A stretch of DNA of 64,000 nucleotides from Tenrec ecaudatus (GCF_050624435.1 NC_134541.1:124958480-125022479), one strand, 5' to 3'; numbered from the stretch's first letter, positions 24,523-30,500 are shown. The notes: a model not told the origin generated them from the sequence alone. A program made the numbers and translations.

Positions 24523-27500
24523 CTGGGACACCCAGAACAGAGGTTAGTGAGGGTGGGGTGGGAGCCTGCCCTCCCCACCGTCCTGGAGGCCGGGCAGGCT
24601 TACCCGCTGCTCCAGCAGCGCCCGCCGGAGAGCCACGCGCTGCTCCAGCTCCCGCAGCTCCCGCTCATGCTGGCTCTCCGTGCGGATCTTGATCTTGCTC
24701 TGGTAAGCATTGAGCAGCTCCAGCTCCTGCTGAAGCTGCTGCCTGAGGGCCTGGAATTCTGCCTCCTGAGTCTCATCGAGCCGCAGCTAGCGGAAACAAA
24801 GCGCCAGGGTGAGAGGCCTTCCCACAGCCCCCATGACCCTCCCTTCCCCAGGCAGGCCTGGGCCCTCAGGTCATGAACAGCAGCAGGCCACCAGCATCTG
24901 CCAGGAGGAAAGATGGTTACACCGGGTCACATGGCAGTGACACTTGTAGGGGTTTGTCCCCTAGGTGCACTTGCATGTGTGCCTAGAGGCGCTCACAGAG
25001 GAAGAGCAAGAGGCCAATGGTGGACGGGACCTTGACGACCAGCAGTGAGGGGGGGAAACAGACCAAGGGGCACCCGCCCCTGCCTCTCCGCCATGGATAG
25101 GCTCCGGAGATGGGTGGCAAGCAGTCAGCCAAGTTCAAGTTTGGAAAGGGTTTGTCAAGTAGGCTCCTGTTTCTGTTGGAAAGTTTTCTAGAACTTTCCA
25201 AATGTGTACAGCAAAAAATAAAATATATCTGTAGCGGGCAACCATCAGTACTAAGAGCTGCCCTTGAGGTGGGTGGCTGGGGTGAAGAGCAGGAAAGAAA
25301 GGACCCTTTGCCAGGCTGGTAGATTGCTAGGTGGGCGGCTCTCGTGCTGGCAGGCTTCAAAATCCTCCCAGTTTGGGAGAATGGGCCCTCCGGCCCCGCA
25401 CCTTAGGACCTGCTCCCTGTGGACACATTCAACTAACTCGAGCCCAGTGACAAAGCAGGGCCACTGGCCACTGCCGTTCTTGGTAGAGCAGGCAGCCTGG
25501 TTCTGTCCATACTAAGACAGTACTAGGAGACACAGACACGCCCCGCCGAGAGAGCGCTCTCTCCCTACAGAAGGTCCCATCGCGGCCAGTACCCTGCCTC
25601 CAACCCCCCCCACGGGGCCATCCACAGCGCTGGCTGCCCCGTGCTCCCTGCCTGGACCGGGGCCTCACCGCCTGCGAGCTGAGCATCTCCGAGATGGACT
25701 GGTCGTACTGCTCGGCCAGGATCGCCAGCTTGCGGGTCTGCTCCTCCTTGAGCCGCTTGAGGAGACTCTTGTGCTGTGCTTTAGGCGTGGTCTCCAGCAG
25801 GTGCGCCCGCAGAGCCTTGTACTGCCGAGTCTGGATCTTGCACGTCTCCTGGAACTGCTTCTTGATCTGCAGCTCCTTAGACTGCGCAGTGGATGATCGA
25901 AGGGAGATGGGGTGGGGGAGGGCGGAGCAGGAAGGAGAGGAAGAGGAGGAGAAACAACCAGGGGAGAGGGGGAGAAGAGAGAGGAGGAGGAAGAGGAGGA
26001 GAGGAGACAGAAGCAGAGACAGGGAGCGGGAGAGAAACAGAAAACATGTTAGACAGAGGGGGCGGGGCGAGCTGTATACAGACAGACGTGAAGATGGGGA
26101 GCATGGACAGATCAGAAGGCTCTCGGGCAAGAGACACAGAGTGAACAGGACAGGTTCCAGGAGCGTGGGGGAGGGGGGTGACCCCACAAGACTGAGCTTT
26201 GGAGCACGTGTTCACAGAGAGGGAGGCTGAGGATTGGCGCAGAATACAGAGTGCACACGAGCAGCTCAGCCCGTGCCGAGGGAGAGTGTAGGACCTAGAG
26301 ATGGAAACGTGAGCAAGCAGAAGACTGCACCAGAGCGAGAAAGCCACGTGACACAAACACCCGTGGAAGAAGGCAACACGACCAGAGAAGATGACAGACG
26401 GAGTCCTGGGTAGGATACCTCGAAGAGGAGAGGGAGGAGGGGAAGAACGGAGCTCAAAGACAGGTAAGAGGGGGGCTGCCCTACCTTGGGCAAAAGAGAT
26501 GGCCAGATGGCCCGACGAGCTCAGAGGCAGCAGCTGCCCATGAGACCAGATCCCATACTCAGCACCCACCCCGAGCCCGCAACCCACCGCATTCCCACCG
26601 TTCCCCGGCTCTCTGCCTGGCCCCCATGCCCCCCCACCCACCCGCCCGCCGTGGAGGGCTGACAGTCTCATTCCACACCCTCTGGGGCCATGCTCGACCC
26701 CAGGAGAGAAGGATGGCGCCCAGACAGAAGGGAACCAGGGAGGGAATGGCTGGGTGAAGAGGCGAGGCTGAGAGGACAAAGGACAGGGACCGAGGGGCTC
26801 ACTCTGTAAGGACCCTGTCAACTGGGTGGGGGGGTTCTGGGGGAGCTCAACAGGAGCCGACCCCAGGGCTGTGTGTGGTCGTGGTGCCGAGACACGACAA
26901 AGGCGGAGAGTCTGAGGGAGAAAGGGGTTAGATGACGTAGATGGCAGTGAAGAGGTCATGGGACTGGGGGTGTGGGGGTGTCAAGGGTCCAGATTTGGGG
27001 GCACACCGGGGAGGCTAGGCGGCAGGACAAAGCAGACAGAGGCAGCCTGGGCCGAAGGTACAGTTCCGCTCAGATCTTTTATTTGTGTTTGTCTTTTTCT
27101 TTTTTTTGGTGGGGGTGGGGGGAGGGGACAGGTTGGAAGGGAGACAGGAAAACAAAATCAAAGAGGAGAAAAAAAACACAAAAAACGGCCGACTGTCGTC
27201 ACCCCCCACCCGCCGTGGCCCCAGGCCCGAGCTGATGAGGGTGAGGATGTGCACACACAGCGGGAGGACAGCAATAACTTAGGGGCAGGAGGAGTGGCAG
27301 GCGGAGACCAATGGACTCCTGCCTGGAGGTCCAGTGGGGTGGGGGGGCGGGCTGGAGAAACCTCACCGAGGGGTGTGGGGTAAAGTGCTCAATGCTTTGG
27401 GTCTGGGCCATGGCCAGCCGAGAGTGGGTCACCTCCAGGGAGGGAGGGCCCGGGATTGGCGGGCTCGGGGTCTCCGCCCAGCTAGAGTCCCTGGTGGCAG

Positions 27501-30500
27501 GTGGTGAGAGGCAGGGGTCCCCAGTCGGCGCTGGCTTCGGGGCAGCAGGCGGGGGATTCGGCTGGGCCGTTCACCCCGAAGCAGGCCCCAGCTGGCCAGT
27601 GTGTGGAGAGCCCAGGGGGGCAGGCGGGAGGCTAAGCCTTGGCTGGCCCGTGCCAGGTGCCAGTTCCAGCCCTTGCACAGGGCCCAGAATCTGGCCAAAA
27701 GGGCCAGTGGGTGCTGGGCAGCACGGGGACTACCCCGCCGGGGCCCGGGAACAGGGAGACGGCTGCGGAAGCCACCCTTATTGGTCTTAGGGTAGAGCGC
27801 AAACAGGCCACGGTCCCCCACCGCCCCACACCCCTGCAGGGCCCGGAAGGCCAGGGGTGAGAGGCGCAGCAGAGCCCGCAACCAGAGGCGAGAGATGCCC
27901 CGGCGCAACCGGGGACCCTGCTGCTGCACCCACTTGCGCCCGGCTGCCACAGCCGCCAAGGGCAGCACCAGGCCCGGCCAGGCCAGAAGCCAGGCAGCCC
28001 CAAGTCCCAGAGGCACACCCACAAGGCCCCGGCGCCAGCTTAGGCCCAAGACAGCCCCGAGGGTGGTGCCCTGAGCCAGCAGCAGGAACAGGTTGGGAGG
28101 CAGATGCAGAGCTGTACAGAGCAACAGGTAGGAGGCCCCCAGGCCCACCAGCCCCACCTCAAGGGCTAGCAGGGCTGCCTGCAGGCCACCCCCACCCTGG
28201 GCTGCCAGTAGTGGGAGCAGCAGCAGCAGAGGCAAAAGGCCGGTGGAAGAGCCCACTGCAAAGGAGAGGCTGGCCAAGAGGCCGTGGGACAGGTGGCCAG
28301 GGAGCTGGCTGGCAAGCCCAGGCCTCAGATAAAATGGAGGAGGTTCGGGGGGTATGTCTGGGGAGGGACAGCCATCCCCAGGATCCCTTGGGGTTCCAAT
28401 TGGAGCTCCTTCCTCCTCTTCCTCCTCCTCCTCAGGCACTGGGGTCAGAGGTGGGGTCTGAACCCAGCCAAGTTCAAACTCCTCATCCAGGAGGCCCTCC
28501 ACCTCCTTCCCCCACAGCTTCCACGGGCCAGCCTCCTCTTGGCCCACGATGCTCCTCTCCTGGGGCGTCAGGGACAGGACTCTAAGCTCCTCCACCTCCT
28601 CCCTGGGTAGACCCCAAGCTTCCTCATCAGGCAGACCCCTACAGTCTTGTGGATTGGGACTAGGAGTTCCTGATTCTTCCCCCACAATCCTCCGCTCCTC
28701 TGGCTCCAAGGAGGCCCCTTCCTTTCCCAGAATCCTTCTCTCTGGAACTGCTTCCTCCTCCTCCTTTCCCAGCATCCTTTGGTCCAGGACTGCCTCCTGG
28801 CCAGGTGGGCAGGGCTGCTTGTCTCTAGGGGTGCCTGTGCAGGGTGGTCCCAGAGCCCCGGGAATGAGGGGCGGAAGGCCCGGGGGGCGCTGGCCGGCAC
28901 GTACTTTGAGGCTCTTGGGCTGCTGGCGGACTTGGGCCGCGTGCTTCTGCCGCAACTCCTGCTCCCGCCGCTTGTTGTACTCCAGCTGGTTGCCCAGCTC
29001 CGTCTGGTGCTGCAGGCGCGTGAGCTCGGCCCGCGTGCGCTGCACGGCCTGGAGCTGCCGGAGCTCCAGCTCCCGGGTGGCCTCGTGCTGCCGCAGCAGC
29101 AGGGCGCACTCCAAGTCCTTCTGAGTCTGCTTCTTGTTCAAGTCCTGAGGGGAGAGGGAGGGCCCGGAGGCCCCGTCAGAACATGGCAGCCAGAGGATGC
29201 CGTGGGGATGGGGAGAGGGCGTGCGGGGTAAGCTGGCTGGCGCGAGAAGAGGGATCTAAGGAAGTGCTACCAGCGTCGGGTGGACAGGAGTGCCGAAGCG
29301 AAAAGGGCAAAATCCGAAAGAGAATGGAGGGCAAAGAGCTCTCCAAGTGGAAGAGGGCAGAGGCCTACCTCCCGCAGCAGGTCCTGGTCCAGGCTGTGGC
29401 GAGCCAGCAGCATCTTGCGTTTGTACTGGCGACACTGCAGCTCAAAGTACTGGCGCTGCCGCCGCAGCAGCCCAGCCTCCTCCTCCGCCTGGCACTGCTG
29501 CAGCTGCTCCTTCTGCCGCAGCAGCCACTCAGCCTTCTCCCGCTTTGGGGTGCTGGGGTTCTCCTGGAGCTCCTGCTGGGACAGCGGGTGAGCCGAGGTC
29601 AGGGGGAGGAATAACGGTCAGGGCCGGCCTGGCTCCCCACCACAGCCTGCCGGGGCCCCACCTCCTTCAGCTGCTCCTTGCGAAGCTTGTAGGTGCGCTT
29701 CTGTGCCTCCAGCAGGGCTGCCAGCTCTTTCTTCTGCTGCCCCAGGATGTGCTGCTGGAACTTGCGCTCCTCTGTCTGGGCGGCCCGCGCCTCCTTCTCG
29801 CCGATGGCCTGGTGGCGGCGGGACAGCTTCTCGGCCTCTGCCCCAAAGCCTGCCCTCTGGGCCTCGAGCTCCCGCTGCAGCCGCGCGCTGTGCTCCTCCC
29901 GCTCGCCCCGCAGCCGGGACTCCAGGGCTAGCAGCTGCTTCTGGTGCTGCCGCCTCATTCGCTTATAGCCGCTCAGCTGCTCCCGGAGGGCCGAGTCCTG
30001 CTCATGCTCCTGGATCTGACGGCTCACCTGGGGGTCGGAGAGGATGGGTTCAGCCCTGACACCGCTGTCCTGCTCCCAGAAGAACCTGTTTTGGACGCAG
30101 GCTGCGGACAATGTCAGTGCCGTGTGGCACTTTCCTTTCCATGTGAGCCCAATGCCAACACTGAACAATGCCGCCCTCCTCAACTGGACAATGCCGATGG
30201 ATTCTGGCAAGGGCGCAGGCTGGTGCAACCAAATGGCAAAGGCACCGGCCCACCAATAAGTCTCCCACAAAAGTAGGACCTGGTGAGACTTGGTCAAAAG
30301 AGCCACCAGCCAAGCCCCGATCCCCTCACCTGACTAAAGAGGCACACATGTCTTCCTAGAAGGGCCACACAGGCCAGTGAGCGCATTCATTAGGTATCCA
30401 GTGGACGTTCTCAGAACCAGTGAACACAGGCTTCTACCCCCCGCCAGCCCCTGCCGCAGCCTAGTTGCTTCAGACACAGAGGACAAGTGCTCCCCGAGAT

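Follow-up and report, generated by a model that had tools for sequence, protein, structure and literature searches.

We identified an alternative 3′ end in TAOK2, the gene encoding TAO2 kinase, within a 64,000-nucleotide (nt) stretch of Tenrec ecaudatus DNA (GCF_050624435.1 NC_134541.1:124958480-125022479; hereafter, the window). The 15th coding exon of this gene is composite, with an internal 5′ splice site embedded in an open reading frame (ORF) that continues past it, and the choice made there would yield either a membrane-anchored protein (TAOK2alpha) or a soluble one (TAOK2beta). We assign this reading a probability of about 0.9. The feature is real, strongly conserved and already described, and both architectures are textbook for TAOK2. 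The sequence anatomy, the constraint on both tails and the conservation to bony fish are established in the present analysis. Coordinates are positions in the window, and the TAOK2 features are all encoded on its minus strand (Table 1).

The kinase domain identifies the gene as TAOK2. Residues 1-329 match the solved TAO2 kinase (1u5q) with 726.5 bits (expectation value, E, 2e-218), compared to 603 bits for TAO3, and the N-terminus contains a Pfam Pkinase domain (E 1e-64). We mapped exons by tblastn with a human TAOK2 probe, keeping only alignments with canonical splice sites, and read the minus strand directly over 26900-29400 and 23200-26000. Together with a canonical-junction search, the probe placed 15 coding exons between the start codon at 39465 and position 28905. 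The assembled products contain 1236 (read-through) and 1050 (spliced) amino acids. Human TAOK2alpha and TAOK2beta contain 1235 and 1049 amino acids, have exons 1-16 (residues 1-745) in common and diverge at the C-terminus (PMC11014455). The window's products are each one residue longer because a poly-Glu run encoded by exon 33351-33614 (minus strand) has one more residue than the human probe sequence.

Table 1. Features of the TAOK2 3′ end in the window. A slash marks a splice junction.
Feature	Position	Strand	Details
Shared part of the 15th coding exon (human exon 16)	28905..29144	-	Ends ...QQPKSLK; placed by acceptor CCCCTCAG/GAC, translation and exon mapping
Internal 5′ splice site	28896..28907	-	AAA/GTACGTGC; in-frame GT at 28904-28903
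Alpha-specific read-through coding sequence	27429..28904	-	491 codons plus TGA 27431-27429; placed by open frame, hydropathy, dN/dS and orthologous tails
Candidate in-frame acceptor	28560..28561	-	CCCCAG/GAG; 345 nt downstream of the internal donor
Proximal (alpha) poly(A) region	27020..27190	-	AATAAA 27083-27078, 345 nt past the alpha stop
3′ splice-site region of beta exon 1	25882..26075	-	CU-rich tract of ~190 nt; AG 25883-25882
Beta-specific exon 1	25669..25881	-	213 nt, phase 0, ends ...EMLSSQA
Beta-specific exon 2	24604..24786	-	183 nt, phase 0, ends ...ALLEQR
Beta terminal coding exon	24001..24522	-	VEEELLALQ...LNGSSHFYS, then TGA 24003-24001
Distal (beta) poly(A) signal	23342..23347	-	AATAAA, 653 nt past the beta stop

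The shared part of the composite exon supplies residues 666-745, the final 80 that every isoform contains, and these are 100% identical in four other mammals (dN = 0). The internal donor that follows, AAA/GTACGT (AAAGTACGT), also reads as the codons Lys-Val-Arg in the read-through protein. The donor is identical across five mammals, including three synonymous positions (-1, +3 and +6). The turtle internal donor is AAA/GTAGGT and that of the teleost is AAA/GTGAGT. In the junction-spanning proteins of caecilians, a teleost and sharks, Val always follows QQPK(S/C)LK, and a Val (GTN) codon at this position is what an in-frame embedded GT donor demands.

We scored donors with an approximate position-weight matrix, for which textbook donor frequencies were used, and with ViennaRNA U1 duplex energies; both are indicative only. 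The internal donor scores 1.8 bits, ranking 16th of 17 among the donors of this gene, and its predicted U1 duplex, at -3.0 kcal/mol, is the weakest (-4.4 to -10.4 kcal/mol for the others). These values suggest that the internal donor is weak relative to the other donors of TAOK2.

The layout in Table 1 had been outlined by an earlier reading of the sequence alone (the original prediction), which placed the exon start at 29144; the acceptor and the translation agree with that position. Its internal donor was correctly positioned at 28904-28903 and incorrectly transcribed as AAG/GTGAGG, GTGAGG being the donor of the next exon (25668). The label 'exon 15' is valid as a count of coding exons, and the human literature numbers the same exon 16. 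The claim that the frame stays open through the donor to 27429 is borne out by a TGA at 27431-27429, as are the three downstream exons (25669-25881, 24604-24786 and 24004-24522), which are in frame, canonical and end in ...SHFYS. The spliced kinase, put at about 1050 amino acids, assembles at 1050. Of the two predicted poly(A) signals, the proximal one (27078-27083) stands and the distal one is displaced by one base (23342-23347, not 23341-23346).

Several observations show that the read-through tail is a true coding sequence under purifying selection. First, the ORF runs from 29144 through 571 codons. The 491 codons past the donor are stop-free, while the other two frames hold 7 and 14 stops; base composition gives a probability of ~1.7e-5 for a stop-free run of this length, and none of 20,000 first-order Markov simulations remained open. 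Second, the ratio of non-synonymous to synonymous substitution (dN/dS), calculated pairwise between the window and four mammals (one primate-like, one rodent-like and two others; dS ~0.45-0.7), is 0 for the shared 80 residues, 0.26-0.33 for the acidic linker, 0.07-0.09 for the hydrophobic region and 0.12-0.17 for the basic C-terminal part. Finally, the frame is open for 568-593 codons from the shared exon in all five of the loci retrieved for comparison (four mammals and a turtle).

The alpha tail consists, in this order, of an acidic linker rich in Pro and Glu, a region of hydrophobic helices rich in Leu, Ala and Gly, a basic amphipathic region and a final segment with the end ...PPWR. The linker contains 37 Pro and 35 Glu in 225 residues (net charge -24), and the region after the hydrophobic helices has a net charge of +23. 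Judged by 19-residue Kyte-Doolittle windows, which are indicative only, hydropathy reaches a maximum of 2.01 in the read-through tail (several segments at tail residues 295-401), compared to 0.81 in the spliced tail. A Pfam search of the read-through tail returned no family.

Human TAOK2alpha has six predicted transmembrane helices and an amphipathic helix, partitions with membranes and localizes to subdomains of the endoplasmic reticulum (ER), and its residues 1187-1235 bind microtubules (PMC8699727). The existence of both proteins and the membrane embedding of alpha are taken from the literature. Membrane anchoring of the window's alpha tail agrees with these experiments and is supported by hydropathy and purifying selection. 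By sequence conservation, the window protein would likewise insert into the ER membrane and bind microtubules.

The spliced alternative is equally well formed: from the internal donor through the three beta exons, every junction is canonical (AG/GT), in phase 0 and in frame. Beta exon 1 is 85% identical in turtle and 82% identical in the teleost.

Both architectures are old. A database search with the 491-residue tail recovered 24 proteins; one comes from a sea turtle, and most are ORFs from short contigs that are 77-86% identical to the tail. The best match is 84% identical, and a dS of ~0.45-0.6 to the primate-like, rodent-like and two other mammalian sequences suggests a eutherian of a separate order. 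The turtle locus (L001) contains the shared exon, the internal donor and a 593-codon frame ending in ...RRPWR, and its three beta-type exons follow at a distance of 3.5-6 kb. A profile search of the alpha tail that covered 1.8 billion representatives identified alpha-type tails in NCBI-named TAO2 proteins from caecilians, bowfin, a teleost (Centroberyx), two sharks and a bird. The Centroberyx locus (L006) has the shared exon, the internal donor, a read-through frame of ~554 codons and three downstream beta exons, whose identities to the window's beta exons are 82%, 82% and 62%. Turtle, caecilian and teleost alpha tails all terminate in PWR. Because the turtle and teleost loci show the full layout, the alpha and beta architectures have coexisted at least since the ancestor of bony vertebrates. 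Caecilian proteins named 'isoform X2/X3' were considered as beta forms and rejected; they are N-terminally shortened alpha-type proteins and are uninformative about an amphibian beta.

These comparisons also bear on what the original prediction said of the read-through product. Its 'Pro-rich linker' was right yet incomplete, as the linker is Pro/Glu-rich and strongly acidic. The hydrophobic helices it described are reflected in the hydropathy maxima, and its identification of the read-through as the membrane-anchored long isoform agrees with published human TAOK2alpha, with hydropathy and with purifying selection. 'Fully conserved' is a fitting description, given a donor identical in five mammals and a layout also present in turtle and teleost. 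An interruption of the read-through ORF in orthologs, which would have counted against it, is not seen: the frame is open in every ortholog examined.

The linker itself seems to tolerate changes in length and in repeats, with the hydrophobic region and the tail retained. In turtle (L001 9902-10460), tandem repeats of the acidic unit PDGQEAWALEPGPGGPQ replace the mammalian linker sequence, and the linker of one shark protein (P0036) contains the repeated unit GRSLEDVSLDWGPGEGPRVGGSPL.

The position of the proximal poly(A) signal points to how the two products may be chosen. The proximal AATAAA is flanked by a T-rich block upstream and a TGTCTGCTTTGTCCTG block downstream. Approximately 170 nt around it are near-invariant in five mammals, a conservation far above that of synonymous sites in the adjacent coding sequence (dS ~0.5). 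This signal sits between the internal GT (28904) and the AG at 25882, inside the intron removed by the beta splice. An additional AATAAA (22929-22934) lies beyond the distal beta signal. Because the proximal signal is inside the intron that beta splicing removes, the kinetics of splicing and cleavage most likely decide the outcome.

When the internal donor is skipped, translation would continue for 491 more codons through the acidic linker, hydrophobic helices and basic tail, and the proximal poly(A) site would terminate the alpha mRNA ~370 nt beyond the stop codon. This mRNA would encode the 1236-amino-acid, ER-membrane-anchored and microtubule-binding TAOK2alpha. When the donor is used, it would be joined to the three downstream exons, giving the 1050-amino-acid soluble coiled-coil TAOK2beta from an mRNA that ends at the distal poly(A) site. 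The outcome would most likely be set by rate, with pairing of a weak donor and a distant acceptor behind a long pyrimidine tract set against proximal cleavage. We infer this kinetic competition between splicing and polyadenylation from its fit to the anatomy of a composite terminal exon with an intronic poly(A) site.

A familiar precedent is the immunoglobulin mu heavy chain, which produces secreted and membrane forms by a composite terminal exon/intronic polyadenylation switch. Like TAOK2, it has an internal 5′ splice site in a potential terminal exon and an intronic poly(A) site, and its alternative products differ in a membrane anchor. The polarity is opposite: in TAOK2, the unspliced form that uses the proximal poly(A) site has the anchor and the spliced form is soluble. 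A further difference is that we found no demonstration of the competition for TAOK2 in the literature.

Several points weigh against this interpretation or the arguments for it. Literature searches on polyadenylation, alternative last exons and PTBP1 returned no paper on a splicing-versus-polyadenylation mechanism for TAOK2. The weak-donor argument rests on an approximate position-weight matrix and U1 duplex energies, not on MaxEntScan, and the teleost donor is strong (AAA/GTGAGT), so donor weakness is not universal. An AlphaFold2 model of the tail from a five-sequence alignment had a predicted local distance difference test score of 44; the model and its helix count are unusable and add nothing. 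Finally, splicing to the nearer acceptor at 28560 would give a transmembrane product from the same donor, so donor use need not commit a transcript to beta and may instead lead to a third isoform.

Splicing from the internal donor to 28559 would delete 345 nt (115 linker codons) and leave a product of 1121 amino acids that retains the hydrophobic tail. The AG of this candidate acceptor is retained in three other mammals, and the rodent-like sequence has CAA. A third isoform, TAOK2gamma, in which the 3′ end is spliced with the frame kept, has been mentioned without coordinates (PMC13479925). The 1121-amino-acid candidate may be this protein.

The acceptor of beta exon 1 has unusual features of its own. 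The preceding 220 nt are 84% pyrimidine, compared to an intron mean of 58%, and the AG-free zone extends for 188 nt, whereas it spans 1-86 nt at the gene's 17 remaining acceptors. One CTAAC, resembling a branch point, is found 168 nt upstream of the AG at 25883-25882. The CTAAC and a long AG-free zone recur in two other mammals and in turtle. The arrangement resembles that of a regulated 3′ splice site with a remote branch point. It raises the prospect, which we consider somewhat unlikely, that the switch operates mainly at this acceptor – with pyrimidine-tract-binding proteins, for example, acting on the 190-nt CU tract – and that the poly(A) site is used only by default, once this acceptor is blocked. 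The exceptional AG-free zone, the pyrimidine content and the kept CTAAC would all suit such control. Against it, the turtle tract is more GC-rich and just 65% pyrimidine, protein binding to the tract is putative, and the literature on TAOK2 with PTBP1 yielded nothing on point. Control at the 3′ splice site is in any case a refinement of the kinetic competition rather than a true alternative to it.

A different account treats the choice as one of splicing only: the alpha mRNA would retain the intron, splice the others and end at the distal poly(A) site, leaving the proximal AATAAA idle. The weak internal donor is compatible with this account, and introns that splice slowly or conditionally typically have, as here, a long pyrimidine tract and a branch-point-like motif far from the acceptor. 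An idle site is hard to reconcile with ~170 near-invariant nt in five mammals and a T/GT-rich downstream block at the expected distance. An mRNA with three exon junctions past its stop would also be a target of nonsense-mediated decay, and human variant nomenclature has exon 16 as the last alpha exon (PMC13479925). We regard intron retention as improbable. A chance frame in a GC-rich intron, with beta the sole real product, would draw on the 67% G+C of the read-through region and on the chance ORFs of 150-360 codons that are common nearby on both strands, and we reject it on the stop statistics, the dN/dS of 0.07-0.33, the frames open in every ortholog from mammals to teleost with homologous tails in sharks, and the experimental detection and localization of the human protein (PMC8699727).

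The kinetic competition admits an extension, in which the alpha/beta choice is an ancient switch under active regulation and not simply a passive mixture. Its setting would depend on three non-coding elements, all conserved: the weak dual-coding donor, the near-invariant ~170-nt poly(A) block and the distant branch point behind the 190-nt CU tract. Together, these elements would decide when cells make ER-anchored or soluble TAOK2, in an arrangement retained since the bony-vertebrate ancestor, with the alpha tail reaching back to sharks. We found no paper describing the three non-coding elements or the age of the arrangement. We offer this extension tentatively and consider it less likely than not.

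The window closely resembles the known human and mouse genes (alpha, NM_016151; beta, NM_004783). The gene, the branch after residue 745 (...QQPKSLK) and the ...SHFYS end are the same, and product lengths are within one residue of those in the window (PMC11014455, PMC13479925). The alpha tails are also alike, with 77-86% identity over 491 residues between the window and mammalian orthologous ORFs. The differences are species-level substitutions only, mostly in the acidic linker, and the architecture is unchanged. In human, exon 16 is the last exon of alpha, and beta continues through exons 17-19; variants specific to alpha map to exon 16 and are intronic (c.2232+319 and c.2232+579) in the other transcript, whose specific exons are 18 and 19 (PMC13479925). 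TAOK1 and TAOK3 share with TAOK2 the kinase domain and a coiled-coil C-terminal half, and the beta-type tail of TAOK2 is the paralogue-like one. The hydrophobic and tail regions are unique to TAOK2alpha and are absent from TAOK2beta, TAOK1 and TAOK3 (PMC8699727).

Some 3.5 kb upstream of the TAOK2 start codon, the window also contains a very GC-rich segment (42900-43950) in which long ORFs overlap on both strands; this segment probably represents the CpG-island promoter of TAOK2 together with a non-coding first exon. Past the other end of the gene, an exon-sized partial ORF (18637-19320, minus strand) matches the N-terminus of Pfam INO80E under the cut-off (E 2.7e-5), an exon-sized ORF (10593-11024, plus strand) has a C2 domain match (E 5e-4), and an acidic Ser/Glu-rich ORF (20758-21834, plus strand) without a Pfam match is HIRIP3-like by eye. 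We take the human 16p11.2 order to have HIRIP3, INO80E and DOC2A adjoining the 3′ end of TAOK2; the putative INO80E-, HIRIP3- and C2-like ORFs may follow the same arrangement. The candidate HIRIP3-like gene converges on the TAOK2 3′ end, and its AATAAA (22561-22566, plus strand) is ~780 nt from the distal TAOK2 signal.

The additions made here to what is known of TAOK2 are modest: the great age of the arrangement, which is found in turtle and teleost with the alpha tail in sharks, and a set of conserved non-coding candidates for regulatory handles. TAOK2, which lies in the 16p11.2 interval, is a dosage-sensitive gene of autism and neurodevelopment. TAOK2alpha functions in ER-microtubule tethering and neuronal migration, and TAOK2beta functions at synapses and in translation. 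Since the two proteins differ in function, how cells set the alpha/beta ratio is of practical interest.

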